Below are positions 9,420 through 62,839 of a DNA stretch of 64,000 nt, in pieces (position 1 is the stretch's first letter; each line of letters starts with the position of its first letter). The notes under the pieces are model-generated. The model made no database searches. It had not been told where the DNA came from and was given only the letters and a program-made list of their open reading frames with translations. Source of the stretch: Marsupella aquatica (lineage: Eukaryota > Plantae > Marchantiophyta); NCBI GenBank assembly GCA_973895155.1, contig OZ316893.1, forward strand, positions 11,734,359-11,798,358, read 5' to 3'. The translations under genes were made by a program, and so were the position numbers.

Positions 9420-9421
9420 AT

Positions 9422-9433
9422 TGGTATCAGAGC
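9422..9433 (+). promoter_or_regulatory. Primer binding site for initiator tRNA-Met
   Basis: TGGTATCAGAGC, 2 nt after the 5' LTR. Confidence 0.95.
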
Positions 9434-11137: not shown

Positions 11138-12037
11138 ATGGCATCCAAGTTTGGAGGTGTCAAGTTTGAGGTGGAAAAATATGATGGGCGCACAGATTAT
11201 TTGCTATGGGAGAAGCAGGTTAAGGGAATTCTTCGTGCTATGGGCCTAGATCATCTACTATCGACTCGGGAGGAGTCTAGCAGTGAGGAGGAGATCCCGT
11301 TGAGGAAATGGAGGCAAGAGCAAGTGATTGCTGTGAATGCGGTTATGCTGTATCTGAAGCCGCATATCATTAAGAAGCTAGACGACTACGAGGATTGCGT
11401 ATCCTTATTCAAGGCCCTCAGAGAGAAGTACTACCGAGAGGATGCCTCAGATCGGTTGTACAAGAAGTCTCTCTTGATGAGCTTGAGACTAAAAGGAGGC
11501 AAGCTTCGAGATCACTTGGATGAATTCGACAGCCTAGTTGTAGATTTGTCAAATTTTGGCAAGGGAGTGGAAGATGAAGATAAGGCATTGCTTCTTCTCA
11601 GTTCCTTACCCCCATCATATCAAGGTTTGAAGCAGGTTCTCTTGTATAGAGATCTCAAAACCATTTCATATGATGAGGTGGTAAGCTCTTTGTTGTCAGA
11701 TGATGCACAGAAGAAACTGGGTCATGCCCAGACACCATCTTCATCTGGCAGTGCATTGAATGTGAACCGCGGGAGGACTCAACAGCGGATGACTGGTGAA
11801 AACAGGTCCTTTTCACAAATGTACCCCTCACGGAATAGAGGCAAGGAGAAGGCTCGGTCTAAGTCTAGATCCAGGTCTAGAGAGAAATCTCTAGAAAGGA
11901 AACCAATTATATGCTGGAAATGTAATAAGCCTGGCCACATGAAACGAGACTGTCGAGTCAAGCAGATTCATCAACCATCAGCGAACGCAGCCACTGATGT
12001 TGATATGATTGACTTGCTTGATGATGAAATCTTGTGA
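11138..12037 (+). CDS. gag: Copia Gag
   Basis: MASKFGGVKFEVEKYDG..., UBN2-like core (DEDKALLLLSSLPPSY) and zinc knuckle CWKCNKPGHMKRDC; ends TGA at 12035-12037. Confidence 0.93.
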   Translation: MASKFGGVKFEVEKYDGRTDYLLWEKQVKGILRAMGLDHLLSTREESSSEEEIPLRKWRQEQVIAVNAVMLYLKPHIIKKLDDYEDCVSLFKALREKYYREDASDRLYKKSLLMSLRLKGGKLRDHLDEFDSLVVDLSNFGKGVEDEDKALLLLSSLPPSYQGLKQVLLYRDLKTISYDEVVSSLLSDDAQKKLGHAQTPSSSGSALNVNRGRTQQRMTGENRSFSQMYPSRNRGKEKARSKSRSRSREKSLERKPIICWKCNKPGHMKRDCRVKQIHQPSANAATDVDMIDLLDDEIL

Positions 12038-15000
12038 AGTCCAGATGTTGCCCTTTGCATTTCATCCAGTAACAACGGTGATGAATGGATTTTAGACTGT
12101 GCCTGTACCTATCATATTTGTTGTATGAAAGAGTTTTTTAGTTCTTACTCAGTATCAACCGGTTCCGTGTTGATGGGGAATGATCATCCTTGTCAAATTA
12201 TTGGAATTGGATCCGTGAAAATTCGGATGTTTGATGGAGCTGTGCGAACAGTGAGTAATGTCAGATACATACCTGACATGAAAAAGAACTTGATTTCTCT
12301 TGGAATGCTGGAAGCAAATGGATGTCGGTGGAGTTCTGCTGATGGTATTCTTCAAGTGTCAACCGGAGGCAAGGTTGTCATGAAGGGTAAGCGGCACAGG
12401 AATCTATACCTGTTGGAGGGCAACGTGATTTGTGAAGAAGCCAATGTAACTAGATCTCAATGCGAGATGACTCAATTGTGGCACTGCAGATTGGGACACA
12501 TGAGTGAAAAGGGTTTGGCGATACTTCGCAGGCAAGGACTTCTTTCTAATTTGGAATCTACTAAGCTAGATTTTTGTGAACACTGTGTGCTTGGGAAGCA
12601 GCACAGGAGAACCTTTGGTGTTGGAACTCACAATACCAAAGCTATACTTGAGTATGTACATAGTGATGTGTGGGGTCCAGCCCCAACTCCCTCACTTTCT
12701 GGAAAATTGTACTATGTCACGTTCATTGATGATTACTCACGGTATGTGTGGATCATATTTCTACACGCCAAGTCTGAAGTTTTTGGCACTTTTAAGAAGT
12801 GGAAAGCCCAAATTGAGAATCAGACTGGCTCAAAGGTGAGATATCTGCGATCAGATAACGGCGGGGAGTATAGTTCAAGTGAATTTGAACTATATTGTGC
12901 AGAGCAAGGGATTACTCGTCATCTCACGATAGTTTATACTCCTCAACAGAATGGTGTTTGTGAGCGGCTAAACCGAACACTATTGGAGCGATCAAGGAGT
13001 ATGTTGAGCCAATCAGGTTTACCGCATGAATTTTGGGCTGAAGCTATAAATACGGCAGCTTATTTGGTAAATCTTTCTCCTTCAAGTGCAATCAATTTTA
13101 AGACGCCGTTTGAAATGAGGTATGGACGGCACGCAGACTATCAGGTTTTGAGAGTCTTTGGAAGTGATGCATATGCTCTCACACCTAAGCAGAATCGATC
13201 TAAACTAGATTCTACTTCCAAGAAGTGTCTTTTTCTTGGTTATCAACCAGGTGTGAAAGGTTACAGGCTATGGGATCCAGAAGCTTGTACGTTGCTTGTC
13301 AGTAGAGATGTATCCTTTAAAGAATCCAGATCATCAAAGGAGGGGGAGAATGCTCAGGCTTCCCGTACTGACAAAGGTAAATCTCCTATCCTGGACCATG
13401 TTGTGGGGGAGATTGGTCATGAGAGTTTTCATGACATAAATGAAGGAGGTGCTCCGAGAATGGAGCTGGTTCCGGTAATGGAACAAGAGGAGCAGGCTGT
13501 TGATGGAATACCTCAAATTCAACCAACAGAACAAGATCAACCAGAATCATCAGCTAGAAAATCGAGACGTACTACTCGAGCTCCTACAAGGTATGGACAA
13601 TGGACAGATTCATCAAGGTTAGATGATGTTGACATTGCACCTGATGATGATGACAGAGCACTGATCTTGGAAGAAGGAGAACCTTCTTCTTATCATGAGG
13701 CGTGCATTTCAGACGAGAAAGATGAATGGAATGCAGCGATGCAGAGGGAGTTGCAATCTTTAAGTTACAATAGAACATGGGAGCTGGTGCAGCTGCCAAG
13801 TGATCAACAAGTGGTGGATAGCAAGTGGATTTACAAGCTGAAGGACAACTCTTCAGATGGAGGAGACAAGATATACAAGGCAAGGCTTGTTGCCAAGGGA
13901 TTCACTCAAGAGAAGGGAGTGGATTACAATGAGGTCTTCTCTCCAGTTGCCAAGTATTCCACGATACGAATTTTGTGTCAACTTGTTGTGTTTTTTGATC
14001 TGGTGTTAGATCAAATGGATGTTGTTACTGCTTTTCTCTATGGCACCTTGGAGGAACAAATTTTCATGAGGCAACCACTGGGCTTTGTGAAGAAGGGCCA
14101 AGAGAGTTTAGTTTGCAGGTTACTTAAGTCCTTGTATGGATTGAAGCAAGCTCCTCGGCAGTGGAACAAGCGGTTCGATGATTTCATGCTTGCACAAGGA
14201 TTCACTAGGATGGTGTATGACCCTTGTGTGTATACGAAATCAGTCAAGAATGGTGTGTTTGGTTTGCTCATTCTGGTGCTCTATGTGGATGACATGTTGA
14301 TTGTGGCTAAGGATCAAACTGAGGTTGACAAACTCAAAGCAAAATTGAGTTCTGAATTCCGAATGAAGGATCTTGGGAAAGCCAAGAGGATCTTAGGTAT
14401 GGAGATTACGAGGAACTTTGAAACTGGACAGTTGTGGTTGAATCAAGGCAAGTATGCTGAAAAGGTACTTGCAAGATTCAACATGGAAAATTGTAAGCTA
14501 GTAAGTATTCCTTTGGCTCCACATTTAAGTTATCATCGGCTTTCTGCCCCACGGATCCAGTGGAGAGAGGTTTGATGACTAAGGTTCCATATGAGAAGGC
14601 AGTGGGCAGTCTAATGTATTTGATGACATGTACCAGGCCTGATCTAGCCCTAGCAATGGGCAAAGTGAGTAGATTCATGTCAAATCCAGGGAAGGTACAT
14701 TGGAAGGCTGTGAAATGGATTCTCAGGTATCTTAAGGGCACAATAGACTATGGTCTATTGTTTGATAGTAGATCAAACAAAACCAAATCTTTGGTTGGCT
14801 ATGTAGATTCTGACTACGGAGGCTGTTTGGAAACAAGGAGGTCAACAACTGGGTATGTGTTTACTCTTGGAAGAGGATGCATAAGTTGGAGATCTACCTT
14901 GCAGAAGTGTGTATCTCAGTCTACTACAGAAGCAGAATATGTTGCAGCAGCAGAAGCAGCAAAGGAAGCAATTTGGTTGGATAAGCTGGTCACTAAGATG

Positions 15001-15264
15001 GGATTGGAGCATGGAAAAATGACTCTTCATTGTGACAGCCAAAGTGCGCTTCACCTAGCTATTAACCAGGTTATGGATAGCAGGGTGAAACACATTGACA
15101 TCAGGTACCATTTTATTAGGCAAGCAGTGTCTGATAAAATGTTTGAGCTAGTCAAGATTGATGGAAAGCTCAACCCGGCTGATGCTTTTACCAAAGTGAT
15201 TCCTTTGGAGAGTTACTCAAGACACCGTGCTACTTTGCAAGTTTTGCATTTGCAGCACAAGTAG
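12038..15264 (+). CDS. pol: Copia Pol (protease, integrase, RT, RNase H), in frame with gag after a TGA, with a 1-nt frameshift near 14525
   Basis: WILDCACTYH protease, LWHCRLGH, VHSDVWGP, LRSDNGGEY, KARLVAKGF, LYVDDML, GYVDSDYG. Adding one T at 14524-14526 restores PLAPHFKLSSAFCP and joins ORF 14560-15264. Confidence 0.93.
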
Positions 15265-15457
15265 AGTAACTTAACAATATGTAATTTCTGTATATGGGTT
15301 ACTCAATCCTGTTATGGCTACGGCTTAATTCTAGTTAACCCTTAGTTAACCTTAAATGGTTTTTAGGGGGACACCTATGGTTTTAGGTGATTGTCTAGAA
15401 TTTCCCACTGAGTATCTCATATGGATAGCAGAAATTGCAGTCCCCAAGACTAGAGTC

Positions 15458-15466
15458 AAGGGGGAG
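15458..15466 (+). promoter_or_regulatory. Polypurine tract of the Copia element
   Basis: AAGGGGGAG, 2 nt before the 3' LTR. Confidence 0.9.
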
Positions 15467-15468
15467 TT

Positions 15469-15800
15469 TGTTAAGGATTGCTCTTAGTCTTGTGACTCAT
15501 AGGTTACGGCACTTAGGCTAACCACAGTTAGGATCTTAGCTGAGGTTAGATTAGTCGTGTGTGACCTTGTATATACCAGGGCTAGTGTAAGCCGCTGGTG
15601 GGTGGTGCTTACTCATTGTAACAGAACAACAGGAGGAAGAGAGAGAGCATGTGTGTTCGTCTACTCTTGAAGTAAAGCTTGAGTGTTCGTGTGGACGTAG
15701 CCTTGGAGAAGAGGTGAACCACATAGAGATTGTGTCGACTACGTGTGCATGGAATGAGTCATGGTTGTATGGTCGTTGCGAATGACGTCTTAGTTCAACA
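15469..15800 (+). repeat. Copia 3' LTR (332 bp)
   Basis: Matches 9088-9419 and is followed by TSD AATAT. Confidence 0.97.
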
Positions 15801-16082
15801 AATATAGCAAAAATATCATATAAGAATGGACAAAAATAATAATTCAAGTCATTATATTTTTAGAATTCTAAGATATTAGAGGAAATTAAAGTAAAACTAT
15901 GTAAATAAGATAGGTGGCAAAGACAAAGACTTGACTTGTACTACACCATTTGACCAAAATATTTGACCGCATTACTTGGTCCTTGGTCTTTGGTGGGCTA
16001 CTGTGGTCCTTGGTGGGCTACAACATTTGGTCCTTGATCCTTGGACTTGGTGGGGGGGGTGAACATGGCACATAGATTGTGA

Positions 16083-27563: not shown

Positions 27564-29261
27564 GTTATCGTGATTTTCTCTTAATATATAAAAAATTGTT
27601 TGTTTTAATATGTTATAGATTATATAAGTAGTTTAGTAGTTAGATTATTAAATTTAGACTTTATTAAGTTCTTTAGCTATAGTGTCGGACTATAATAATT
27701 CTACCAATGCACAGTAGTTCCACTTACGCATAGTAGTTAAACTACCAACTATAGTAATTCTACCAATGCATAGTAGTTCCACTTACGCATATTAGTTCTA
27801 CCAACTATAGTAATTCTACCAACGCACAGTAGTTCCACCAACGCATAATAGTTCCATCGACGCTTGGTAGTTTCACCTACTAAAAGTAGTTTCACCAACT
27901 ATGAACAGTACTAGCACACTCTTAGGTATTTGATGCTTGCCACTTGGCCTTCATCCGAGTGCTTGGGCTTGATCCATGCCCTCTTGGTGTGCACTATAAA
28001 TAAAGTGGTGAGGGGCACTCTCCCCTCATTTCGCAGTATTTATCATTCAAGGTTGTGAAGCTCTTTGTGCCTTAAACATAGTAGTAAGGCGTCCTTTGGC
28101 CCGGATAGCAAAGGAATGAGTGGTAGACTTATAGATGGGACCTTAGGAAATAAGGTTTCTTTGGGAATTTAGGGGTGGGGCGTCTTTTGGCCCGGATAGC
28201 AAAGGAATAGGAGAGCCATCATGAATCCACTATGAGAGAGAGTTATCCCTGATCTTCCCCTTCGTAATCCGTTTTTGATTAGAGTCCATCTTTTAGATAA
28301 ATCATCCATGAGGCAATATGTAACCTATCATTTTGGAGCTCAGTTTGCAACTGCTATTATGGTTTCTAACGAGGCAATAGTATACTCAGTAGTGTCGTAC
28401 CGAGAGGAGTGAGAGTGCATTATCTTTGTCCTTTATTGAAGTCATGGATCTGAATAGGAGTCCAGCTGATACTCTTGTTTCATTTTCTCTTGGAGATATT
28501 ATGATCGGTCAATTGCAAGCTTGAGGGGGGCAAAAAGGATATCCAAAATCTCCATCAAAAGGATTCCAGTCCTTCCCTTTTTTCAAGGGATGGACAAGGT
28601 GTTACACCTAATGGCCTGGATTGCTTTATTGAGAATGGAAGGTGGGATCTTCCCCTCACCTCCAGCAGTCCATTTGGAAGCGTGCCAGGAGGTTTGATTA
28701 GGAGTAGCGTCCATTAATGATTCAATGGTTAAGGACAAAATGACTTAAAAGGAAGTCCAAGTGGTAATGAATACCAATGAAACAAGACTTAAGTAGCGAT
28801 TTGAATTTCAAAATACTTAATTACGCGTAGACTAAGGAGTCCTAGCTAGGCTCAGCTAGGACTCTACGGAAGAGGCAGGGAGCCATGGGAATTGAAGGGT
28901 TGTCGACTATCTACGGTAATGTTTTGCGGGTTTGCTTCGGGAATTTTACCAGAGAGCTTCTGGCCTCAAGCGGATTCGACGAATTCTAAAGATCATCCAT
29001 AGAACTAGCAAAAAGCTTGGCGACCGTCTTCTGCAATGTAGGGTGTTCACCTCATTGGTAAAGGGTAAGCCGCGCGACATCTCAATGTTGTTAGACTCCA
29101 TTTTTTGTTTGCTTGAGTGCGGGTGTTCCCACATGAATTTCTGCCATCTAGAGCCTCATTTAACTTGGACCATGGCCTCTTTAACTTATGAAATATATAT
29201 TGTTTTGAACTTACGTTCAAAAGCTCATCGTGTTGTAGGAGCTACCATCAATTTTAGCGAG

Positions 29262-32200
29262 ATGCCACCAGTGCGGCGCCAAGCGGGGCGCCAAGATGAA
29301 TCCCAAGAAGAGAAAGAAAAAAGAGAACGGCATAATTTTCGAAGGCGAAAGTCATGGTATGACAAGCCTATTGGGTAGTGCCAAGAGGTCAACACTAAGC
29401 AATTGAATAGAGGCATTCAACCGGAAGACGGCAATAGTACGGGCCTGATTTTTGATGCCAAGCAGCAAGCTGATCAGTTGCTTCTTCATGCTCAGCAACA
29501 AGCTGATCAATTGCTTCTTCATGCTCAGCAGCAAAGTGAGGTATTATTAACTGTTGCTAGGAATGAGGCGCTGCGCTTACATGGAGAGGCAACCGCTCAA
29601 GCTGCGTTGAAGCTGCACAACATCAAGAATGACTGTGCTGAAGGCAAAGAAACATTGTCACGTTTGCGCTCTAGGATAGGGCAAAAGCAAGCCGCCCTTG
29701 AAGTACTGCGTGTGCGATTTGGTGAAGGAGCTCACTGTCTACAAAGCATGCAAGAGGACCCTCATTTGGCCAGAGAATTCAGGGAGAAAGATGCTGCTAG
29801 AAAACGAGCTGCATATTGGAGACTTCGGAGGATGAGAAGTTTAAGTTTGTCTAGTCATCTTGCTGAGGAAACGCCCAATAGAATGAGATGAGCGGTTGAT
29901 TCAGTGGTCTCCGAGGTAACTTCAGTCTTATTCAAAAAAATGAGAGATTTCAACTTATCCGCAAGGAAGGTAGTCCTAGAGCAATTTTGGTTGCATTCTT
30001 CATTGAGAGAATATCATCCTGCAGCTCTTGGGACCCCTAAGTTAGATGCATCTGTAGGAGCTACTATAACTGACCTTAGGCAGACCTTGCAAATTGTGAA
30101 GTGGGGTAAAAAGAAAGATCACTTGGCTGTAAAGCATTCAGTGTTGGTAGCTATGGTCGGACAGTCCACGGTTGGCAAGCGATATCAGTCCTCTTTAGCT
30201 AAGGCTTTTGGTATCAAGAGACACAACATTCAAAAAGCATCAAACATGCGGAAGCAGATAGATGAGAACCAATGTATAAAATACCCAATGGGGGAAAGGA
30301 AAACCAGGAGTGACAAGATTAGTGCAGAGGTGCGCAAGATTATTGAACTATTTTGGAGCACATACACTAGAATCTCACCAGGCAAGAAAGAGATAGCTAG
30401 AAAGCGACTTGGACCAAATCAACATGAGGAACATAAAGTACATTGGCTCGAGGATACAGAGGTAGGATATCCTCACATTGGCTACTTCAATTTCTTTGAG
30501 AGTTCTTAAAATTTTCTGCATTCTTTAGTCCCGTCTTCAGTTGTAGCCAACGATACAAATTTGAGAGCCTGAATTTGGGTAATCTATTAACACCCTATTG
30601 ATGTCTATTTACAGGTTGAATTTTTCTTCAAGTTCCAAGATTGGTGCAAGGCTGAGAACAATGCTGAAGGACCGCAGGCCTATAGTTATCTGAAACCGTT
30701 TTACATTCGAACCATGAAGGATCGAAATGTATGTTGCTGCAAGCAGCACATTGAAATGGACCTCCTGAAAGAGGCACTAAACAAATTCAGGAAGTTTCAT
30801 CACCCCTCTGAGTGTAGTTGTCAGTGTTGTACTTGTAAATCAGTGGCCATTCCATTAGGTGTTTCTTGTGTAGCTTCAAGGACACACATTACCTCTGTTC
30901 GAGGTTGGATGGAAGGTGCGCTGTGTAAGAAAACCGAGGGGCAGGTATGGCACAAGAAGGACTGTATTATGGGAGTTTGTGTAGATTGTGGAACGCTGAA
31001 TTTGGACTGGTGTCCATGGGAGTTGGATTCCACACAACAACTAACTATTAGTTGGCAGAGTTTTGAATATCAGGAGTTAGATGACAACTTACAAATGAAG
31101 AAAGCAAAGAAGAAGGGAAGTGATGAGAGTTCACAAAAAAAGTCTAAACGCTTGAGGATGGTGTATAAGACTACGTCTGTAAGTGATTTCAGGAACGTGG
31201 TCGAAGCTAGAATGAAGTCATTTGTTGTTCATGATTTTAGAGCTCGCTGGCAAAGTGACCAGTTTAGATTGTGTTTGAAGACGTTCCCAAGAGGAACCAT
31301 AGTGTCTTCAATTGACTTCTCTGACAATTACACTTTCAAGACGCAAAATGAGATTCAATCGCAACATTGGGACAACAAACAGATTACTTTGTTGATCCAT
31401 GTGACCTATAGACATCGAGAAGATGTGCACCAATCTATGGAGGCTGCAGTGGGACGGACAGTGAGTATGGCACAGAGTGAAGCTGGTGACAGAGATATCA
31501 TCGCCGACTATCATTTCTATATCAGTGATGATAATACTCACGACACCTTGTTTGTGCAGCATTGCATGGATGCTCATTACCATTGGATGAAGCAAGAGGG
31601 AATTGAATTCACTCAGCATTGGGTTTGGGTCAAAAGCAAGCTAGAGGGGTACCAACGGAGTCCCCAAGGACTAGCTCAAAAAGGAGAGTGAAAGGAGTAT
31701 AAATGTCATTAAGATTTAGCTGAGCACACTCCCAAAAAGGTTGGGCACACTTCCAAAAAGATTGTGCACACTTCCAAAAAGATTGGGCACTCTTCTTAAA
31801 TTCCGAAATATGTGGACACACTTCCAAAGATTTGGCATGCAAGATCTTACCTTTCAATCTCACCAAAACAATCCTGGCCATTCCATGTAACATTTTGGTC
31901 TTTTTGTCCTCTAGTGATTGCTTTTACCAAGGACCTATGTCCTTTTGGTGGAGAAAATGGTGATCCTTTCAGTACCCCTCTAGCTTGCTTTTGACCTTTG
32001 GTCCGATGGAGCTACCTCACAATTTAAGGCTTGTAGACCTTTCTACTACGTCTCAAGGTATTACAAGAGATTTGGTGCACGGATGAAATGGTTTTTCCAT
32101 GCTTCAGGACATGGAAAGGGTGTAGTTGTAAGTGTGGAACTCTACCTCCAATATTTGAATTCACTGTGTTGTTCTCATTATTTAGTTTCATATGAGCTTC

Positions 32201-33129
32201 TTTACCGTTATACAAGAACATTATTCTTTGGAGTCTAGTTGTATGCTTGTGTGACATTGAATGGACTTTTTCTGCATGGATAGGATGCCCTTGGAGGCCA
32301 CATCAAGAGCGGGATACAGAGAGAGCAGTTGAAGGGGACGCATGACTTTCGCTTGGAAAATGCTCATGATGTAGTTGCATTTTGCAAGGAGAAGTTTGCC
32401 ATTGGTATTGAGAGAGAGTATGGTGATGTTTTGCTTGTGAGGCGATTGTTTTGGGAAATAGGTGCTACAACTGTGAATCGGCACAAGAAATGGGACTGTG
32501 ATGCAATCCCAGGATGTAGAGCAATGCATTGTTTTGATGGATTTAGTAACCGACTTTCAACTCTGTTGCAAGTGAGGGAACTATGCTGTTTTTGTGCTTA
32601 CTGTCTTGATGAAGAACCACAAAAATGTGAGAATCGAGATCTTGTAGGACTGTATAAGCTTGAGATGGTGAAAGAGATTCTCCCTATTGATGTCAAAGCA
32701 GACCTTGAAGAAATGGGAGTTGGTGAAGGACTGTTGGAAGGGGACTCTGGGTCTTTGGCAGAGTTGGTGCAGTTGGGTGATTTCTATGCAGTGGAAGCAG
32801 AGCGTCCAAATCGTTGGGATGTAGACTTTTACATTTTGCAATGCGAGGAGGTCCTACATGATGTCACAGAGACATTTGTGGATGGATACGAGCAGGAACT
32901 TCAGCAGGGTGAACTGGTATTGAAGGGCAAATGGATGCAACCAGTTCCAGGATTGTGCCACACATATGTCTATTTAGACAAATCACCACCAAGTTTTAGT
33001 CTTGCAAAGTCAGTAATTCACATTCGATTTGGGCTAAGCCCATGTGATACTTCAGGACGGAAGGGTGGTAGCAGAAAGTTCAAATTGGACAAAGACACAC
33101 TTGCAGCAATTACAGATTCTTTGCGATGA
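29262..33129 (+). pseudogene. Sola2-type DDD transposase, 3 exons (29262-30461; 30615-32127 minus the MITE; 32284-33129), inactivated
   Basis: CCCKQH and CKK...C..C..CG Cys motifs; HDFRARWQ; IDFSDNY...QNEIQSQHW..QITL; ISDDNTHD; HWVWSDGATSQFK; FHASGHGKGVV|DALGGHIK. GT-AG introns 30462-30614 and 32128-32283 keep frame. Stops at 29376 (TAG) and 29889 (TGA). Confidence 0.85.
31628..31996. mobile_element. 369-bp MITE with TIRs related to the host Sola-like element
   Basis: Perfect 25-bp TIR GGTCAAAAGCAAGCTAGAGGGGTAC; 4-bp TSD TTTG at 31624-31627 and 31997-32000. Removing the element and one TSD restores W-V-W-S-D-G. Confidence 0.95.
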
Positions 33130-33379
33130 TGAGAGAATCGTCTATTGAGGTAAATTTCTGAATTGCCCAACTTCCTACTTTCCTTGCAATCTACATCAAC
33201 ACTTTCATGCACTAGCTTAACCATGCAGTGCAATACAATGTCATTGAGCTTTGCCCGTAACCCATCCTTAGTGCGTCCATGTGTAAGGATTATGTTCTTA
33301 TGTAAAGACATGTCCAAGGTGTCCTTGCTATTAGTAAGGACTCCTCTACATAGCGACTCCTTTTGGTTTGATTGCATGT

Positions 33380-33750
33380 CTAGGACTCGGTCATTTTACA
33401 AGGACTAGGACTGTGTCCTTGGACAAGGACAGAGTCATATTGGAAAGGACCATGCAAAGGACCATGTCCTTTCAAACGGACTAAAAAGGATTTGTGAAGG
33501 ACTATGTCCTTTGTGAAGGACACATTCAAGGACTATGTCCTTGACTAAGGACATATTCAAGGACTATGTCCTTGGTGCAAGTCATGGTAATTAAAGGACT
33601 ATGTCCTTGGTGCAAGTCATGGTAAAGGACTAGTTCCTTAGTTAATGACACAGTCCTTAACCGTAGAAAGGACCATACATGTCCTATATCCTTTTACATG
33701 GACTTCACAAAGGACTCTCCCAATGTATACTAGACTGTGTCCTTGTGTAT
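33380..33750. repeat. Array of AAGGAC/GTCCTT motifs (mini-hairpins) downstream of the transposase
   Basis: aaggactatgtcctt and variants recur throughout the interval. Confidence 0.8.
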
Positions 33751-34894
33751 TAAGGGTCTCGGAGATATATGTGGCCAGATAACTAGCGACAATGCTTATA
33801 TGAGAATTCTTTGAGCTGCTTGTATGAATGCGTTCTATTTTTTAGGTGGTTGGGCCTTTGTAAATTTGCAATCAGGTACTTATACAATTTGTACTGGTGT
33901 TTTGCGTTTTGAACACAGACTAAACCTTCAAGATACTTCGGACAGGACTACATCATGTAGACTAAGGGACACTCTGGATGACATACTCTAGATGGTAGAG
34001 ACTGAGTGACATACTCTAGATGGTAGACTGCCACTTTTTGGCACTCGGCTCACAAGATAATCATGTTTGTAATATTTCATGTTAATGGATCTGCATTTCA
34101 TCACTTAAGGAATTTTTCCTTCTCATTTCTTCAAGGGCCTTGTGGACATGATGTGCCTTGATTTCCTTGCGTGTGGTTGTACCTTTCTGTAAGCATATCT
34201 GAATCATGCACAAAGCAATTGTTCAGATAGAAACGGTTATTAAGTCTCTGTTTATGTCACACTTGATGACAATAGTACGGGACATCCATTTGTGGTCTCA
34301 AACTTTCTGTTGTCAGGTGTACTCTACAAAAGTATCAACTCAAAATAATCCCTTGGATTACACACTATTTCAGGGCGCTATTTTTGTACATTCAAGATTT
34401 TTGCAAGTATATACCAATCCACACTTGTCACTTCCAGCCAACTTCTTCCCACCGTATAGCTGCCTTCCAAGTTACAAAACCTCTGGTGCCCATTTGTCTC
34501 CTCGAGGATTTAGTGCAAAGAACACAGGTTTACTCACATGTCAATCAAGATATACCTCAACTAAAATATATCATCTAGACCACCTATTGAAGGAACTTCC
34601 AAGCTTCTCTTGAACAGTTGTGGTCTTCATGCCCAGAGACTTAAGTGTTAGAAAGGAACAAAACTGAAGTAACATATTGATCAGAGGCGCATCCATAGAC
34701 AAGAATTGAGGACTCAACACATATACAGAAGCTTGTGTTGAGACAACAACACTGTATTGATCAAGTACTTTACTGTATAGAGTTTGAGCTTGAAACAACA
34801 TCCAGTTCAGTGTGGATTTCATACCATCACTGGAATACAACAGTCTGCTACATACTATAGCACTCTAATTACTCCTCCGAAATACGAAAAGACT

Positions 34895-35572
34895 TCAAAG
34901 ACATGACGAGGTCTCCAGAAAAGTCCAAAATAGCACGTAAAGTCTCTGAAATGATGTTGCTCCACCATCTTTGGTGGTATCAAGACAATCACCAAAATTG
35001 GGTGAGGTACCGATCTTAGTCTTACTAACATTGGGCTTAAATTCATCTCTGTCCGAATGATTTATTATAGCGCGAGTAGCTTCATCTACCTGCAGATGCC
35101 CACGAGCCTTAACAATACTCACTGCTCGAAGGTCATCACTACGGCCTAACTTTGCCACACATGTGATGGTCCACAATTCACTCTGCACCTGCCCACAGAC
35201 TTCTTGCACCTTCTCTGGGCTACTCTCCCATAGCTTCTTAAAGGCTTCTCCCGACATCCCCAGTAGCTGCAACCCGCAATCTTCATTCACCAAAATAACG
35301 TAATCCCCGACTTGCACAGCAAAGCAGTACATAAAACTGCCAGTTCCAACACTACAGCAGACATGTTCGGATCGTCCTCGAGAACGAGGACCCACGGGAG
35401 ACTGAGGGTTCAATTTTCTCAGCCTGCGGGCATTCTTGCCCAAAGTGCATGGCTTACCATCACTCAACAAAACATTGCAGCCTTCATAAACAAATGACCC
35501 AGCACAAACTCCCCACATGTGGTCAATTTTGATATCCACCAGGGTGGTGAACTTGTTCTCAAGATTGTCCAT
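34895..35572 (-). CDS. RPA70 C-terminal-like zinc-ribbon OB-fold protein, putative ssDNA-binding, transposon cargo (3' boundary uncertain)
   Basis: FVYEGC(x9)C...HVCC...MYCFAVQVGDY..NEDCGLQLLGMSGEAF parallels RPA70C YxAC..C...C..C...RYILxxxIxDxTG...FxExGExILGMSAxEL. Acceptor-like tgcag just before the ATG at 35572. Confidence 0.6.
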   Translation of the reverse strand: MDNLENKFTTLVDIKIDHMWGVCAGSFVYEGCNVLLSDGKPCTLGKNARRLRKLNPQSPVGPRSRGRSEHVCCSVGTGSFMYCFAVQVGDYVILVNEDCGLQLLGMSGEAFKKLWESSPEKVQEVCGQVQSELWTITCVAKLGRSDDLRAVSIVKARGHLQVDEATRAIINHSDRDEFKPNVSKTKIGTSPNFGDCLDTTKDGGATSFQRLYVLFWTFLETSSCL

Positions 35573-35669
35573 GATCTGCACAAAGATAATATATGAAGGG
35601 TTACATATCAACTATTGGTCACCGGATGGTTTCTCTTGCAAACTAAAGAGGATCTCAATCCGGCACCCT

Positions 35670-36020
35670 GACTCAAGCACCTCAAGTCCTGACTAAAGGA
35701 GCCCCAGTCTTGACTAGAAGACAATACTGATCATCAGTTACCCGTAGTCCTGACTAAAGGACTGGAGTCCTTGAGTCAGGACCGGGAGTCCTAACTAAAG
35801 AACCACGAGGACCGGAGTCCTGACTCAAGGACCCCGAGTCCTGACTCAAGGACCCGGAGTCCTCACACAAGGACCACAATTCCTGACTCAAGGACCCCGA
35901 GTCCTGAATCAAGGACCCGGAGTCCTCACACAAGGACCACAATTCCTGACATGAGGACCGTGACCCCCAACTCAAAGAGTCCTGAAGAGTCTTGACACAA
36001 GGACTTGGAGTTACTGACTC
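35670..36020. repeat. Tandem gagtcctgactcaaggacc-type repeats between the cargo genes
   Basis: Repeated 18-20-bp units, including a higher-order duplication of about 60 bp. Confidence 0.8.
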
Positions 36021-36286
36021 CACGACCTACAAGTAGTGCAAATCATACAGAGCAATGAACATAAGCTATGGAGAGAATCCAAAAAGGAACTTACACAGAG
36101 CTCAATACTGGGACTTTTGGCCCCGATGTGCATGAGTTTGCTGCACAAAACAAAAACTAAGTTAAAGCAAACCTTTCTTGAATGCATCTTCTAACAATTG
36201 TCACCATAGCTCTCCTCACTACAAACTGCAGATGCACAATTTACATTGGAGAGGGCAATGATTTTTCCTGGATCATAACTTGAAAG

Positions 36287-38995
36287 TCAATCATCCACAG
36301 GAAGTTTCCTTTGGGAGGAATGAGCGGGAATAGTCACAGTAGGTGAGTTTCCGCCAAGTGCTTGACTCAAGAATCCAAGAGGTGTCTTCACCAACACCAA
36401 ACGCTTATAATTGACATGAACGCCACACTCAGGGGAAAAAGGTATTGTATCTGGACTCGACAACGTTTGGCTACAGTTCACCTTCCTAGCTGATTCTTGT
36501 TCAACCTTTCGTTTCTTCCCCGACTCCCCACCCTCTACTTTTGGTGTCACCAAAGGTATCTTAGACGATCCGTCCTCAGGCTCATCATCGCCTATATCAA
36601 TGATGGAAGTGGCCTCCATGGCGCTCAAATACATGAGAGCTTGGCCGTGAGAATCCCCCTGAAAATACAATCACCGAATAATTACAGGAGTTGACAAAAT
36701 CATACGGGTGCAAACATAACAGGCAAAAATGTGTCTACAAACTATAAAGAGATGTGCAGGCACAAATAATTCAGAAGATTGCTTTACAAATTCAAACCTG
36801 TGATTGAGCTGTTTGAACTATCCGCGAAACCTCTCTTCGTCTTCCCAAACATCTGCCCTTCTTCCCATACATATCTTTTAAGTCTGTTATGTAAGAATGC
36901 CGTGATTCAACCGGACTTGGTGATGCATATGAACTTGGTAAACCCCAACTTCGCAACCAATCATCACTGAAGGCATAGGAGCATGCCAAACACTTAGCAC
37001 TCTGTTCTGATGAACCAAGTATTGGAAATAGACAACTCGGATGGTAGGTGTGCCCACAAGATGCTGGAATCCAGTTGAAGCAATGAAACCCATTGCAACA
37101 CACTGGACAAACAGTAAGTGAAGCTTGGACTCCTACAGATCGACAAGAAGTAGGAATAAAACGAGGAGCTAACACAGGGCAAGGATGCTTCAAAACTTTG
37201 TTTAAAATGGAATGTTCCTGAGATTGAGCTTCCAGAAGCTCCTCCACCCCCTTAACGACAATCTCCCTTTCTTCCACGACTTTGGTCAATCTTGCCACCT
37301 TGCTTGGCAAGTCTTTGAACATATGATCTTTGTCGGTGTGGAGCATCCTCAACACAGTCAACTCATCTGAAATTCATCTTGACCGGGAGTTCAACATCTC
37401 AATTGTGGCCTCATGCTGCTTCAGATCAGTCTGAAGGTGTGTCAAGTAATCGTTGGGGGTCTGTCATAAAGAATAAAAAACAGAGTGTCATTCATCAACT
37501 CACAAATCATATTAGCTGCAAGCTACTAATCTCAGATTTCCAACGTTAGTGAAGAGAATAAATAGAAAGTGCGATAAAAACTAATGTGGAAATTGATCAG
37601 AGTGAAACCTCATCGTCTTCACATTGGTTGCCTTCTTCCAACTCAATGGCATTCGTGGTTTCTTCATGCTTCTCTTCTTCATTTGATACTGAATCCTTTA
37701 CAAGCTTCAACTCCTCCTCTAGTTTGCAAATTTGATGATGAATCCGCTGCAGTGCACTTCGCCGGTCGCACTCTGAAGATTTCAAATTTTCCAGGCTTCG
37801 AAGAAGTTTCTGAACATCTTCGCGGGCCTCTCTTACTTGGTTCTTACTCCATGACATTTCTGATTCAAGCATGGATAGTAACAAGGCACGAGGGGGGGTA
37901 CTTGGCAACTGCGCAAGAGTGGAAGGACTTGGCCGCACCCACGGAATAGGGGAGGCAGATGCAGTACCAAGTAGCTCAGCAGGAACTTTTTCGAGGGAAA
38001 GAACATCCCATCCGCTCTCGGGGATTGGAGACTTCATCGTTGGCTCTTTCAAAGAGAGGCTTGAAGGAACTCGGGGAGGAACTGCCTCATGAATTGCATC
38101 CTCAATAACTTGTGCATCTGCGTGCTTATAGACACGACCAGTCTTCCTTACACAAGGGGGCCCATTAGGCTTACCTTTGCCTTCTCTATGCCACTGAACA
38201 ATCTGGCCTTTCAACTTAGATGCAGTGTATGCGGCCCAATTAACTGTCCTCCCCAACACTCGCTCAGCATACACTCCCTTAACAAATGTATGTGCCTTGG
38301 AACACTCCATTGACCGGCTTCTCATATCCATCGACAACTTGGGATAAATGTAAGACATCCTCTTGTGGCAAGCCTGTGCAACTACCTAGTTTGTAACCGC
38401 TCCGTCCCTTATCTCCAAAGCACGTGACTAGCATTTCCTCACTGATGTCAATGATTCTATGGAGATTTTCGCCTTCATTCGGAAGGCCAAACTGGGTAGC
38501 AAAGAAGTGAGCGTCCTTGTAAAAATTGGCTGGATCCCATTCGTTGTCTGTCGCCTCTGAAGCTGGCTTCACTCTACCTTTAGATTTCTCAATAGATGCT
38601 ACCGCTCGAGCAACACAATCATCTGAACTGGGTTTTCCTTTAGAGAGTTTGACTAACACAGACCCGGCTGGATCCCATTCGTTGTCTGTCGCCTCTGAAG
38701 TTGGTTTGACTCTACCTTTAGATTTCTCAATAGATGCTACCGCTCGAGCACCACGATCATCTGAACTGGGTTTTCCTTTAGAGAGTTTGTTGACTAACAC
38801 AGACCCGGTTGAGCGTTCTTGAGGAGAGTTTTCTAATGACCCTACACCCTCACCTCCATCAACGGGCAATGGAAGTGGGTATCCATCAAAACAACTATGA
38901 AAAGTCCTGACTAAATCTGATGAGAGTTCTGGTAAATCTAAAGTAGAGAAGGTTACGTCAAATATCGATGAAAGGAAGTAGAATAGGTGGTGCAT
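36287..38995 (-). pseudogene. Spliced cargo gene: helical domain, coiled coil and RING-H2 finger (5' end uncertain)
   Basis: Exons about 38995-37609, 37460-36798 and 36658-36287, joined by phase-0 GT-AG introns. CPVC(x13)CGHTYHPSC(x13)CLAC is C3H2C3. Frameshift near 38300 and in-frame TGA at 37374-37376. A 46-47-aa tandem duplication lies at about 38529-38808. Confidence 0.72.
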
Positions 38996-41900
38996 TAGGT
39001 ATCAAAGTTACAAGCGTACCCTCAGTCTGGCCTGCGGAGCACATCACGCTCATGAAGTAGCACTTCCACCCAAACCTGTGCAAACTCTCCATGCCCACAA
39101 CATGTCAAAGACCATGTATGCAACATTTGCACCATCGTTGATTTGAAAGTTCTTGAGTTTACAAGCACCTATCGCCGAACGCGTTGCGACTGTGAGGAAT
39201 ATGAAGGTCTATCTAGAATTGGTTGAAACTGCAACAAAGCAACATTTGCTTACCCGAGCTCTAAACCAATGTCACCAAACCGCACCACCTTAGAAAAGAT
39301 TTGAAAGAATAGAGAGTCCGCAATGCTATATTTCCTTCAAGCACTAAAATTGAAACATTCGGCGGAACTCCTCAACGTTCATTGTCGACATTTACTGTCG
39401 ACATCCACTACTTTGCGATATTCAGTCTCGTTCAGTCTCGCCACCATTGTCATTGACAATCCCCTAAGCCTCCCAAACAAACTACTTTGCGACACTACTC
39501 GGCGTTCACTCCCCCCGCCACTGTCGTTGAGTATCCCCAAAGCCTCCCGAACATCTGGAAATCTAAGGCACAGCAGGCCCCAGCGGCCAATTCCTCACCG
39601 TTGATGGAAACCCGCGGATGGCACGGAAGCCGCGCGGCTATTTCAAACTTGGCGGCGATTTCAAACTCTGGGAATGACGGAACTGGTCCCCTCCTTCTTC
39701 TCTGTGGAAGGACCTTAGTGGCTAGAAATGATGCGATGTCCTTTTGCGTCATTAATTCCTTCACGGGGTTGAAGTCCTTGGTGGCCCCACTATCCTTCAA
39801 TCTTGATCGTTGATCTTCATATCACCACAAGGACTACCTCTCCATTTTGGTGATCCTTTTTGCGTCCTTTTGCCCCCCTCAAGCTTGCAATTGACCGATC
39901 ATATGTCGTAAGAAAACTAATTTTTGTGATGTGTTGGTCCGCAAGTATGGTGAAATAGGGTTTAATAGTATATTAGTTTCACCTGAACCTTTCTTAATAC
40001 CCACTACTTTTGTTACTAGAATTATCATTTTAGTTTTAGTGTAAAACTTATGGACATGCAAGGTTAACTTCATAAGAGCCAACATGCTCTTACCAAAAAA
40101 CACGGTCACCGGACATAAGTGGCGACCATACTAGGGAATCGCTGGATTTTGAAGTTAGCTTGTGCATGTTTAAGTTCTAATGGATGGAGAGAGATATGAT
40201 TTTGGAACTTTGAGTCTTTAACTTGTTTATATTATTAAGTCAAGAGGGAAGAATTCCAATCATGGGAACTGAGATGAATCCAACTGACATGGAGAGGTTT
40301 TCATCTTTGATTGTTGCTTACTTACATGGAATGAAGAAGAAGGAGATGGAGGAGAATAAGAAGAAATAGTTGCTTGGTAGGATCACAAAGTACCTACACT
40401 CGGTTCTTACATAGCAAGGAGAATTTGATGGGCGGAATGCAACCAAGTAACTCAAGGGGTGCTGGACGGAGGCTACAGTTCATAAGATGGATGCAGAAGT
40501 TGCAATCAAGGAGTTTGTATCTTTAGTAGAACCTGAACTCAAGGGAATTGTTACTACCTTGATAGATGGAGCTACTGGAGAAAAGGCATGGAAGGTCTTT
40601 GAGTTGAAAATGAAATAAGAATTTCAGCTTGAAGATCCATATCGGGTTACTCAAGCATCTTTCCTTGATTGGATGACCGATAGAAACAAGAAGTTGGGAC
40701 CTCAAGAGCTGATAAGGGAGTTTACAAAGAAGTTCAATCAGCTTCCTGAGATTGGTTTTGAAGTTATCAAGGTACAGAAGGCTACTTTACTTAACCAAGC
40801 TGCTGATGAGAAACTTCAAGATGAGTTAGAACTTGCTCTGGAATTGATGAACCCAAGTCGTGGAGCCAGTCCACCAACTTGGGAGGAGATTGAGATTGTT
40901 GTGCTTAGGGTCAGCCAAAAGCATAGAAAAAAGAAGCTGAGTCATGAAGGTGCTCTAGATGCGGTTGCACCTGTGACTTCTATGAGGAGAATGGAGAAAA
41001 TGAAGTCAACAATTGGTAGGGGTGAGAAAAGCATGGACAAAATGGATGAGTTGTCTGAACTCATGAAAAATCTTACTATTCTTGCCACCCAAGCCTTCGA
41101 GCAGATGGGAGAAGGTGCATCAAAACCAGCGCCAAGAGGTGGTCCAGGAGCTGGGAGTTTCATTGGTGGAGCAAGGAGTTGGAATTGTATTTGGTGTGAC
41201 AGCAAGGAGCACTCGAGCCGTGAATGCGGGGAGCTTTTTGTTGCTCTGAGAGAGAGTATAGTCAAGTTCATTGATCATGATGGCATAAGAAAGCTTGTTT
41301 ATCATGATTCAAGATAACTTATTCCAGTAAACACAAACAAGGGCGGTATGAAGATGTTGGTGGAGAGAAGAATAATTGAACATCATACTTCAACCATTGC
41401 ATCAGCTTTTGGAGATCAGGATGAGCATGAAACAGATGTTTACACCTCTTTGGGAGTTCTTCATCAGCAGAGACAAACAAGAAGAGACTAGCAGAGTTTG
41501 TAAGGTGGAAGTCAGGTTGGAGTGATCCAGTATTGATTTCTTCTTTCACTATAGAAGTGGGATCTCTATGGGATTCTATGGTGGAGGAGAAACAAAAGTT
41601 GTCGGAACCTTTGGAAGAACGTGCTAAAGGAAAACAGAAGGTTGAGCCTGGACCCTCTATTTTGCAGCCATCATCAGGAGTCCCAACAAGGAGGAGTGTT
41701 CAATTTGAAGATAGAGGAAGTACAACAAAGGAGCCTACTTTGACTCCTTCATCCTCAAAGGAGATGGAAGTGGTAAAAAAAGAAGGTGGAAAAGAAAGGA
41801 CCTGGTTGGGTCCTTGGAAGAGATGTTGAGTAGCACATTGCGTATGATCAAGTTGCTGAAAAGTTTTGGAAAGCGAAGGTGAGTGGAGTCACCAATGAGG

Positions 41901-44450: not shown

Positions 44451-44827
44451 GTAAAGGGGGTGTCGGCAAACAAGGTGCAACCGCGAGGGAAAATTAGCAA
44501 AGGAGCCACGGGGTTTCCTTTTTTTCCTATTTTCTCACTCCCTCTCTTTTGCAAGACTAACTCTTGCCGAAAGCAAAAACTCGGGCTCTCTCTCAACTCT
44601 TGCCGAAAGCTCTCTCCACATTTTGCAATTATTCTGGAAGCTCTTTCTCATGGTCAATTGTTGGGGCTTGTTGGCATGATTCTTCCAGGCATTAGCGGCA
44701 GCAGCACGGAGTGGTTTCTGGGGGAATTGAGGGTAATTGATTGATTGGGATACGGGGGCCGTTTCGGGCCAGGGAATTGACATTGCTACGGGTGATGGGA
44801 ATTGGTAATTGAGGATTTGATTTCTGG

Positions 44828-46750
44828 ATGTTGGATCAACCGGAGTTTAGTGCGGCACGCATTTGGAGATACAAGGCTGCTTACCGTGACTACATTGAGA
44901 CATTGATTGCAAGAGAGAGAGAAGAGAGAGAAGCTACGATGAGTACTGGACTGGCGGCAAGTTCCGCACCGGTGAGTAGGAAGGTTTTCCGTCAAATTTA
45001 TCCCAAAACCTCCGCCAAGGTGATGGAGGATTGTGGGAATATTTTTCTGGCCACCGGGCTCACGGAGTTCATGAAGGTGGAGATTACAATCCCTTCGGGG
45101 AAGAATTGGAACATTGAGGCCGGGATGGAGTTACGCACGGAAGGAATCTACTTTGAATGTCTCCAACGGGTACTGCCCCATGTGGAGTTAGCTAAGCTTC
45201 TATTTCTGGAGAACCAACAATTCTCATTCACACCTCAAAACATAAGGGGAGAGCTCACGTTGACAATGGTGGCCGGTTGGGTGATTAATCCCACCTCCAC
45301 TACTTCCATTCCTCTTTCCGCCGTCAAGGATGCTGAGCACAAGGGATTTCTGGCCAAGGTTCATCAATGGATCCTTGGTAACGTGCAATCCGGGGTGGTG
45401 AATGGAGAGAATTTCGTGGTAGCTATGGACATCCAGCCCATGTGTACGGATGGTGGTACTACGGGTTGAAGAAGCTATTGGACGCCGATCCCGGGAGTGT
45501 GAAACCAGGTGGGGCTGTACATTTGATGGGGTCATTTTTGCTGGCCAGAGCAAAAGGGTGGATTTTTTCCTAGGGACAGGAAGACTCTGGATCATCCCTT
45601 ACCACGGAAATCAGGAGTATTGCCACTACCATCTTGGGGAAACTAACGGAGGGATCATCGTCGGCGGTTGGGAATGATAATAGAGAGGAAGAAAACCAGG
45701 ATGAGGACTCCACATTGGAGTGACTTGAATCACTTGTGGAAGATCCGGAGGAGCCCCTGGTCTACGACATTCCTGATGTCTACCTAGCGGAGTTACGGGA
45801 TTTCCGGCAGGGAGTTCATGAGGGACTCAAGCTAGTCCACGCATTGAGAGATTCTCTCAAGTAGGCCACCGCCAGAATAGAGACTTTGGAGCACAGTGCC
45901 CTATCTATGAAGGAGGTGATCAAGGCCAAGGAGGAGGCCATTCATGAGAAGGTTAATCTTCTCCAAGCAGCTCACGTAGAGATCTCCAACTTGAAGGGAG
46001 CCTTGTCCACCAAGGCCAAGGAAGCGGAAGAGGTTGGAGTATTGAAACAAGCATTGGCCAAAGAGAAGCAGAATTCTGGAGAGGTGGTGGAGTTAAGAGC
46101 CCAGGTGGGAGCACTGCGGAGTCAAATGGTGATCTTTGAGACAAGGGCTAAGAGGAGTGAGGCCTTGAGTCTGGGGAAACGGAAGAGCCCCTGCACACCT
46201 AGCTCCACACTTTCCCCGAATTTGATCTCCAGGGCCATTGAGATGGTGGTAAAGGAAGTCAGTGGGAAGTATGGACCCCTGTTGGATGCCGCCAAGAAGA
46301 GTCAAGAGAAGAGCAAGAACTTAGAGAAGAAGCTCAGGGAGGTACGTAAATCGTTACAGGAGGCTCAGGTCAACGCGAGGACCCCAGGGATGCCACCGTG
46401 ATCTTTCACCCCTGGGACTCCCATAGCCACCGGGCAGGTTTTACCGTTGGAGTTCCGGTCCGGTGAAGAGGCTGCCTTATGGAAGGACACCATTGGTGAG
46501 GGGTACATCAAAGCATGGCAGGCCTTGGCCATTTGAGGAAGCAGGGGAGCACTAGCACAAGGAGTACCCCGGTGAAGAAAAAGAGGGGTGAAGTGGCACT
46601 CACTCCAGTGGAGAGTGATGAGGAGGCCCACTCACGGGGCTCAAGCCAGGGCACCGTGAGTGAAGAGGAGGAGAATTAGAGTGGTCGTACGGATGTGGTT
46701 GTACGGCCCCTTGACTTTTCCACTTTTTTGTGAGGGGTCACTCACGGGCT
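44828..46750 (+). pseudogene. Decayed accessory ORF (helical N-terminus and coiled coil) inside the 4-kb insertion; 3' end approximate
   Basis: ORF pieces 44828-45469 and 45886-46401 (E/K/L-rich heptads) separated by stops and a frameshift; coding-like sequence continues past TGA 46401. Confidence 0.55.
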
Positions 46751-61371: not shown

Positions 61372-61709
61372 TTTGTAGTATTAATTTCACAAGGCTGTTT
61401 GGTTGGATATTGTTGAACATTGATAGTTTTGTCCAAAAGTATCCTATCATTGAGCAGATCACCAATAATTACAACTTTAAGTCCATTCTTCCAGTAACTA
61501 TATATATTGGTGACCTTCCATCTGAGTTTTTAGTTTAGTAAGAAGAATATATATTTGGCATTTAGGTCTTCAAGGTAGAGAAACTAACTGCTCTAAGAAA
61601 TATCACATCGTATTAAATCAATCACACATGACATAGCCAACAATGAAAGTACATGGTTCATCTTGTCTAGGCAATGCTTGTTGTTGAGAAAAGATGATAT
61701 TCACAACGA

Positions 61710-62839
61710 TGTCCGGGTGACCATGTTTTCTGGTAAGAGCATGTTGACTCAATGAAGTTAACCTTGCATGCCCATAAATTCTACACTAAAACCAAAATGA
61801 TAATTCTAGTAACAAGGGTAGTGGGTATTAAGAAAGGTTCAGGTAAACCTAATATACTGTTAAACCTACTTCACCATACTTGTAGACCAACACATCTTGA
61901 AAATTAGTTTTCTTACGATAAATGATCATAATATCTCTAAGAGAAAATGAAATAGGAATATCATCTTGACTCATATTCAGATCCATGACTTTAATAAAGG
62001 ACAAAGATAATGCACTTTCACTCCTCTCGGTAAAACACTACTGGATAAACTATTGGTTTGTTAGAACTTATAATAGCAGCTGCAAACTGAGCTCCAAAAT
62101 AATAGGTTAAAAATTTCCTCGTGGATGGCTTGTCTAAAATATAGACTCTAATAAAGAAATGGGTTAAAAAGGGTAAGATTAAGGATATCTCTCTCTCTTG
62201 GATTCATGGTGGTTTTCTTGTTCCTTTGCTATCCGGGCCAACGAACGCCCCACCTTTAAGTTTCCAAATAGACCTTATTCCCTAACGTCTCATCTAAAAG
62301 TCTACCACTCATTCTTTTGCTATCCGGGCCAAATGACGCCCCACTACTATGTTCAAGATACGAAAAGCTTCACAATCGTGAATGATGAAAACTGAGGATT
62401 GTTGGGAGAGTGTCTCTCTCCACTTTATTTATAGTGTTCACCAAGAGGGCATGGATCAAGCCCAAACACTTGTATGAAGGCCAAGTGGCAACATATAAGG
62501 TACATGAGTGTGCTAGTACTATAGCCAAAAGATAGTGGAGCAACTATACACTATACTATAGCTAGTGGAGTTATTGTAATCTATAGGTAGTGGAGCTATT
62601 GTAGTCCATACACTGTAGGTAATGGAGCTATTGTAGTCCGTATCGTACACTGTAGCTAGTGGAGCTACTATAGTCCGTACACTATAGGTAGTGGAGTTAC
62701 TATAGTCCGTACACTACAGCTAGTGGAGTTATTAAAGTCTAAATCTTATAATCTAACTACTAAACTACTTAACTTATATAATCTATAATCTATTAAAATA
62801 AACAAATTTCTATATATTAAAATAAAATCACCATCGACA
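61710..62839 (-). mobile_element. Solo LTR of the same family as the 27564-40115 LTR, inverted and uninterrupted
   Basis: Reverse complement is colinear with 27564-28506 plus 39901-40115, including the internal tandem repeats and the duplicated ggcccggatagcaaa motif. TSD not resolved. Confidence 0.85.

Follow-up and report, generated by a model that had tools for sequence, protein, structure and literature searches.

A transposon bounded by terminal inverted repeats (TIRs) in the liverwort Marsupella aquatica carries, alongside its transposase, a separate spliced gene for a protein that combines a coiled coil with a RING-H2 finger, and this is very probably a selected, element-borne gene. The element occupies positions 28507-39896 (11,390 bp) of the 64,000-nucleotide stretch of contig OZ316893.1 analysed here (contig positions 11,734,359 to 11,798,358; hereafter the window), with the RING gene sitting between its ends. 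The window copy is dead, in that it cannot make the RING protein, and the case for the gene is built on its sister copies and more distant relatives. A first-pass annotation of the same sequence had described a transposon-encoded coiled-coil RING-H2 protein, and had proposed that it is a ligase acting on silencing factors or on the transposase; the observation is now partly confirmed, and the interpretation partly supported.

The gene lies on the minus strand, where two phase-0 GT-AG introns (37608-37461 and 36797-36659) join three exons (Table 1) into a frame of 769 codons, bearing out the earlier suggestion of frame-preserving introns. The encoded protein begins with a low-complexity segment containing a 46-residue tandem duplication, followed by a conserved domain of about 140 residues, a linker, a coiled coil, the RING-H2 finger with a W-x3-W-G tail, and a low-complexity end. 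The finger is of the C3H2C3 type, reading C-x2-C-x13-C-x-H-x2-H-x2-C-x13-C-x2-C, and was found at 37109-36981, where it had been placed beforehand (about 36980-37110); across all six frames the window holds this pattern a single time, and none of 60 shuffles produced it. The coiled coil expected before it is modelled as a long helix (model residues 2-62; predicted local distance difference test, pLDDT, 85-97), and the helical domain recognised from the FVKGVYAERVLGRTVNWAAY stretch (VNWAAY) is part of the conserved N-terminal domain. The possible first exon at 39495-39800 did not survive: it is a 108-codon frame without a match among 129 proteins or 65 loci, a frame as long arises in 461 of 2000 shuffles, and the family's frame starts at ATG 38886. 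It is replaced by a likely promoter or leader, the interval 38887-39867 being relatively CpG-rich (observed/expected 0.81, against 0.32-0.56 in the rest of the element).

Pfam RING families match the finger weakly (E 0.014-0.1, below cut-off), and the family profile matches solved RING E3 ubiquitin ligases (RNF4, E 1.9e-5; 14 sequences at E<=0.01). Foldseek gave RING or RING-like zinc-finger domains throughout among the matches listed for the RING model, none of them at E<=0.001 (E>=0.16). A cluster search of Atlas led to generic RING clusters, under 0.9; in a VIA fold search with the RING-exon model, generic coiled coils took up the results, and a homodimer prediction for the protein scored 0.05. 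The N-terminal domain was modelled from 10 sequences with a pLDDT of 74, and yielded no Foldseek match at E<=0.001 and a best Z of 3.2 among 48,161 chains, an outcome that neither proves a new fold nor excludes kinship to VANC or PMD; its own Atlas search returned only weak leads, all below 0.9, to Transposase_32 and ATHILA clusters.

Three lesions, not noticed by the first-pass annotation, disrupt the window copy: one base is lost near 38876, 4 bp are inserted at 38297-38300, and a TGA stands at 37376-37374, amounting to two frameshifts and a stop. Introns were ruled out as the cause of the two internal breaks, since family contigs exist without them. The insertion is missing from contigs of sequencing runs X1-X4, and by one count from those of X6 as well, the base lost near 38876 is present in those of X1, X2, X4, X5 and X6, and the TGA position reads TCA in X1, X2 and X5; against this, the X5 copy is also frameshifted. 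The inserted bases are the reverse complement of those flanking them, resembling a hairpin-type excision footprint. In X1 the contigs reach a depth of about 100 over the transposase and 92-125 over the RING gene, whereas most single-locus joints stand at 14-20; the X2 figures are 197 and 174 respectively. These values call for caution, as contig depth does not equal copy number. With that caution, because sister contigs lack the breaks and depth on the RING gene is similar to that on the transposase, the gene is family-wide, several near-identical copies holding both. The sister copies are about 99% alike, and the family has been recently active. More distant copies are also present: in X6 the RING and N-terminal domain motifs alone reach a depth above 1000, other parts standing at 8-12, and such copies occur in other runs too. 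Loose ends at 30794, 32515, 35469 and 37025-37110 point to a more distant subfamily in the same runs, with transposase, OB-fold and RING matches.

Beyond this genome, a HMMER scan over 1.84 billion representatives returned 69 relatives of the RING gene at E<=0.001, 29 of them at E<=1e-10; a word-based search of longer proteins for the RING exon had no match, unlike the full HMMER scan. Fourteen of the 16 relatives looked up are gene models of annotated genomes, 1 in Calypogeia and 13 in Riccia (on 7 contigs), with the same domain order as the window gene; the Calypogeia model shares 35% identity with the window model over residues 167-687 of the latter. All eight zinc ligands and the W-x3-W-G tail are kept in 26 of the 29 closest relatives (E<=1e-10). 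Scanning metagenomes yielded 65 loci, grouped into 41 clusters, from which the exclusion of 7 small off-family clusters left 34 representative loci; the N-terminal domain is found upstream of the RING in 25 of these 34, and in 20 of the 24 with enough flank. A quick tree separates the AT-rich, intron-bearing metagenome contigs from the liverwort sequences as a clade of their own (support 98), with support of 96 for the window with Calypogeia and 97 for Riccia, and the metagenome relatives probably come from a moss-like plant. One of these loci, L008, equals L004 minus two GT-AG introns, its first segment being 99.9% identical, and is either a transcript or a recent processed copy; many single-exon relatives stop at V straight after the RING exon, which fits a common intron position. 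Some relatives have a second, C3HC4-type RING near the C-terminus (L008 2050-2175, L026 2095-2967; Pfam zf-C3HC4_3, E 5e-7).

Purifying selection on the RING gene family is indicated by the ratio of non-synonymous to synonymous substitution rates (dN/dS), a check that the first-pass annotation had called for: it is 0.10-0.16 in the RING, 0.15-0.22 in the coil, 0.25 in the N-terminal domain and 0.63-0.89 in the linker, across three intact loci forming three non-independent pairs. These values bear on the explanation that the gene is a neutral, Pack-type capture of a single host RING gene fragment, restricted to this copy or lineage and decaying there. The window copy taken alone would suit it, being a pseudogene whose private coding changes look neutral: 4 of the 14 coding differences listed from the X1 and X2 contigs are synonymous, with a fraction of 0.34 expected without selection and 69 further difference rows outside the count. 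Nevertheless such a capture is highly improbable, given the intact sister copies, the full-length multi-exon frame, the dispersed multi-copy relatives in three lineages and the signature of selection; nor is there a single-copy parent among the 69 relatives, as far as these are named. Like Pack-MULE and Pack-CACTA elements, the transposon has a host-like domain between its TIRs, but here that domain belongs to a gene that is full-length, family-wide, selected, old, and within an autonomous element. The claim of an element-encoded, conserved gene is therefore upheld by its place between the TIRs, its intactness in sister copies, and its relatives in Calypogeia, Riccia and metagenome contigs.

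The transposon is delimited by perfect 29-bp TIRs, the right one, already recognised, ending at 39896. A second copy of the repeat that it interrupts (about 61709-62520, reverse) provides an empty site, with a single GATC near 61924-61927 where the filled site has GATC on each side, and sequencing contigs join 28502 to 39897, leaving out 11394 bp, or the element plus 4. Hence the target-site duplication (TSD) is 4 bp, although the palindromic GATC leaves it ambiguous on that evidence alone; a related miniature inverted-repeat transposable element (MITE) is flanked by TTTG twice. The closest named relatives of the transposase come from two liverworts, Calypogeia fissa and Riccia sorocarpa, with identities of up to 59% across 98% of the query; the transposase matched no Pfam family and no PDB chain. 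Across 19 relatives D287, H-G-K 323-325 and D329 are invariant and D202 is near-invariant (at least 90%), with no conserved late Glu listed in that alignment, and D202, D287 and D329 probably form a catalytic DDD triad. On its 4-bp TSD, putative triad and TIRs the element is best called Sola-like. The passages of PMC10741241 on the Sola superfamily give it a DDD transposase and a 4-bp TSD, and the short TIRs, the size and the bryophyte-type genome are also in keeping with them; unlike here, they mention no accessory RING or RPA-like gene, both of which are present in this element.

The window transposase is broken as well, by lesions private to this copy: family contigs have C at the stop bases 29376 and 29889, and in 4 of 4 runs they lack the MITE (joint 31623-31997). 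The MITE belongs to the same superfamily as the element, holds one AAGGAC-N4-GTCCTT pair and a 21-bp tandem repeat, and is covered deeply in all four runs, which suggests many copies. A Riccia model of the same transposase family, P0090 (R1sor_003635), is labelled with an F-box domain, and may be a fused annotation or other cargo of the ubiquitin system. The element is inserted in a high-depth repeat of about 1.2 kb (27567-28506, 39897-40116 and 61709-62834), present as two window copies in opposite orientation and having tandem repeats close to its end. Elsewhere in the window, 9087-15801 is a nearly intact copia-type retrotransposon with 334-bp long terminal repeats 99.4% identical, and 2217-5869 and 44813-46401 hold long open reading frames (ORFs) in which a helical plant-transposon-like domain is followed by coiled coils; these have no Pfam match above cut-off, and are likely retrotransposon accessory ORFs.

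Table 1. Features of the transposon, in window coordinates.
Feature	Position	Strand	Remarks
Left TSD, GATC	28503..28506	.	from empty site and contig joints
Left TIR, 29 bp	28507..28535	+	paired with right end
Sola-like DDD transposase gene	29262..33129	+	exons about 29262-30461, 30615-32128, 32284-33129; broken here by two stops and the MITE
MITE with related GGTCAA termini (25-bp TIR), TSD TTTG	31628..31996	.	inside the transposase gene
Non-coding array 1	33340..33730	.	31/35-bp units; 23 GTCCT/AGGAC words
RPA70 C-terminal-like OB-fold/zinc-ribbon ORF	34895..35572	-	Pfam Rep_fac-A_C E 0.008, below cut-off
Array 2, most likely non-coding	35650..36010	.	21-bp units; 21 GTCCT/AGGAC words; behind the RING gene stop
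RING gene exon 3	36287..36658	-	low-complexity tail; stop 36289-36287
RING gene exon 2	36798..37460	-	second coil 37460-37191; RING-H2 37109-36981; W-x3-W-G tail 36959-36942
RING gene exon 1	37609..38886	-	ATG 38886; 46-residue tandem duplication 38528-38808; conserved ('NWA') domain 38545-38122; first coil 37872-37654
Likely promoter / 5' untranslated region of the RING gene	38887..39867	-	contains the first exon proposed earlier
Right TIR, 29 bp, same as left copy	39868..39896	-	perfect match
Right TSD, GATC	39897..39900	.	

The pairing of the RING gene with this transposase recurs outside the window. In Riccia, R1sor_026263 (RING) and R1sor_026265 (transposase) are two tags apart, with a chance of about 0.03 assuming 27,100 genes, and a transposase lies within 10 kb of the RING gene in 6 of the 41 metagenome clusters. 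The convergent layout of the window, with the transposase downstream, is clear in four of these (L030, L016/L035, L051/L054 and L057); the transposase is ambiguous in L012, and upstream in L033/L034. Five clusters have their transposase matches downstream (150 kb) and one has them upstream (133 kb), and 4 of the 13 representatives with at least 7.5 kb of downstream sequence show one. Several observations nevertheless weigh against a fixed partnership: no transposase tag is near 12 of the 13 Riccia RING tags, none was seen in 35 of the 41 metagenome clusters, many with short flanks, and TIRs looked for around six metagenome loci with transposase remnants were not found. The N-terminal domain, coil, RING and GTCCT array (see below) could instead be a mobile module, riding several transposon kinds or non-autonomous elements and only sometimes paired with this transposase. 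Fragments near three loci, presumably CACTA-like, would fit that explanation, as would four loci with a second, facing gene copy. It is improbable, however, as the window element forms a clean unit of TIRs and TSD whose two genes have similar depth, four distant clusters repeat the convergent layout, the transposase is mostly downstream, and old copies decay while short contigs hide partners. The second RING-family genes facing the first, 2.8-7.7 kb downstream in L007, L012, L016 and L029, are nested copies or parts of two-gene elements.

The other conserved feature of the element is a short word. AGGAC/GTCCT is its top-enriched 5-mer, with 76 occurrences in 11.0 kb against 90 in the 52.6 kb outside, and is concentrated in two arrays (Table 1) built of different, unrelated units. 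Array 1 was ruled out as a coding peptide repeat by its periods of 31 and 35 bp and by stops in all frames; array 2 has one frame open over part of its length. Smaller clusters lie near both element ends, including five words at 39690-39870, and in the window the word stands on both strands, frequently as inverted pairs. As GTCCT was picked out in the window first, its test in distant loci was a prediction, and in 34 such loci it leads all 5-mers in the interval 350-2000 bp behind the RING start, with 193 occurrences against 27.6 expected from flanks. A GTCCT cluster is present at p<0.01 in 18 of the 30 loci with enough sequence, the repeat units being unrelated among loci; coding peptide repeats were rejected for the metagenome arrays viewed.

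Such conserved non-coding arrays recall those targeted by VANC, and lend the analogy drawn in the first-pass annotation indirect support. In the relevant passages of PMC5735166 and PMC10398659, VANC proteins bind short motifs concentrated in non-coding tandem repeats of the element that encodes them, and they remove silent marks, although how the marks are removed after binding is stated as open in PMC5735166. An array-tethered ligase is favoured here because the layout parallels this arrangement of a motif in non-coding arrays of the element itself. The RING protein would be an accessory product of a Sola-like transposon: its N-terminal domain would tether it to the element's own GTCCT arrays, the coil and RING would ubiquitinate something local, and silencing would be weakened at the arrays, such that the element resists it. 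As a complete mechanism this is tentative, its chances falling short of even, and its parts differ in strength. E3 ligase activity is plausible from the RING sequence, and the finger probably recruits an E2. That the N-terminal domain reads GTCCT, or is brought to it, is a closer call that tips slightly towards the negative. As substrate, a host silencing factor or chromatin at the site would be favoured over the transposase.

Several points tell against the tethered ligase. Firstly, Pfam offers no link between the N-terminal domain and a DNA-binding family (10 + 12 members). Secondly, 12 of the 30 loci lack a significant GTCCT cluster. Thirdly, in the metagenome loci the enrichment of GTCCT is confined to the sense strand of the gene (3.3-3.5 per kb, compared with 0.8-1.1), and in L003/L004 it is located in the intron after the RING exon; both the strand bias and the intronic position also fit an RNA-level or host-factor site. 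Fourthly, the word is identical in the window element and in distant loci, making it conserved but not family-specific, whereas VANC motifs diverge between families in the accounts cited above. Fifthly, canonical RING E3s have an E2-contact Trp, a Pro after the seventh ligand and a linchpin Arg, and among 26 relatives the Trp is present in 1 (Leu in 20), the Pro in 0, and the Arg in 0 (Lys in 4).

The residues of the finger also bear on whether it is catalytic at all. The RING may be a non-catalytic scaffold or adaptor, the protein aiding the element through its N-terminal domain on chromatin or RNA, with no ubiquitin transfer. The absent E2-contact residues, a family-specific W-x3-W-G tail in 26 of 26 relatives, the presence of Vps8 and Vps41 RINGs among the best Pfam matches and the sense-strand bias of GTCCT would all be in accord with this. 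It is nonetheless quite unlikely: the profile and fold matches point to E3 RINGs, many active RING E3s lack the Trp or the Arg, and a coil plus RING is the usual E3 arrangement.

A catalytic RING might alternatively serve the transposition cycle. Behind the RING gene lies an ORF resembling the C-terminal OB-fold and zinc-ribbon part of RPA70. Five Riccia RING gene models match it in their C-terminal parts at 25-33% identity, and the RING models extend into OB-fold sequence in 6 of the 11 Calypogeia and Riccia models viewed (five aligned; P0015 by eye). This RPA70-C-like ORF is inside a TIR element, adjoining and co-oriented with the RING gene in the window, Riccia and Calypogeia; RPA-like genes are otherwise known from Helitrons. 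Like the RPA70-like genes of plant Helitrons, it is a transposon-borne RPA70-like OB fold, but it comprises the C-terminal OB/zinc-ribbon part only, and sits in a TIR element with a DDD transposase. The RING protein could attach ubiquitin to the transposase, or to repair factors at the break left by excision, while the RPA70-C-like protein handles single-stranded ends and the arrays are transposase or host-factor sites. The adjacency and shared orientation of the two genes argue for such a role, as do the GTCCT clusters near both element ends and the precedent of RINGs in Chapaev transposases and RAG1, the RAG1 RING being a ligase that self-ubiquitinates in the relevant passages of PMC4411706. 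Yet the largest arrays lie inside the element, at 4-5 kb from its ends, and trail the RING gene in relatives with or without a nearby transposase. The OB-fold ORF, moreover, was found in none of the 65 metagenome loci, which also counts against the tethered ligase. Overall, a ligase for the transposition cycle is unlikely.

The tethered ligase can be compared with known counter-silencing systems. VANDAL elements, which are Arabidopsis Mutator-like elements (MULEs), share with this one a cut-and-paste mode, a transposase with two accessory genes, a short motif in non-coding tandem arrays within the element, and an accessory protein in which a conserved domain accompanies a variable region containing tandem repeats, as set out in parts of PMC5735166 and PMC10398659; the same parts have demethylation demonstrated for VANC, and for the RING protein a comparable effect is putative. 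The transposase superfamily differs too, with a 4-bp TSD and DDD here, and not a MULE. The N-terminal domain gave no DUF1985-type Pfam match (10 + 12 members), DUF1985 being the domain type linked to VANC, and its fold searches were without a clear match. VANC is not known to have a RING. The passages of Kapitonov and Koonin 2015 (PMC4411706) on RING fingers describe them as known at that time, among transposable elements, only from Chapaev-type transposases. As in Chapaev and RAG1, whose RING is an E3, the RING here is encoded by a DNA transposon, but in that source the Chapaev RING forms one fused protein with the transposase, behind a Chapa domain. In Marsupella it is instead a separate, convergently transcribed, spliced gene on the opposite strand, with a coil and an N-terminal domain of no matched family. 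Hence the gene appears to be of an accessory or counter-defence kind that is neither VANC nor Chapaev. The full-text literature searched contains no description of this element or gene, nor of any plant TIR element with a separate gene for a RING protein, with Repbase and subscription papers outside that search and a prior description there possible.

The RING gene has been kept in both major liverwort lineages, as well as in more distant plant DNA, and the host annotations of 'RING-type domain' proteins in Riccia and Calypogeia are likely to describe transposon genes. Whether these constitute a bryophyte counter-silencing kit unrelated to VANC, comprising a new GTCCT-reading domain and a RING that ubiquitinates chromatin or silencing factors, with an RPA-like helper in liverworts, is doubtful at present. 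Few transposon-encoded counter-silencing proteins are known. If true, a stand-alone, selected RING gene with a conserved cis-motif would be an independent solution, with ubiquitin as its catalytic handle and a concrete target word.

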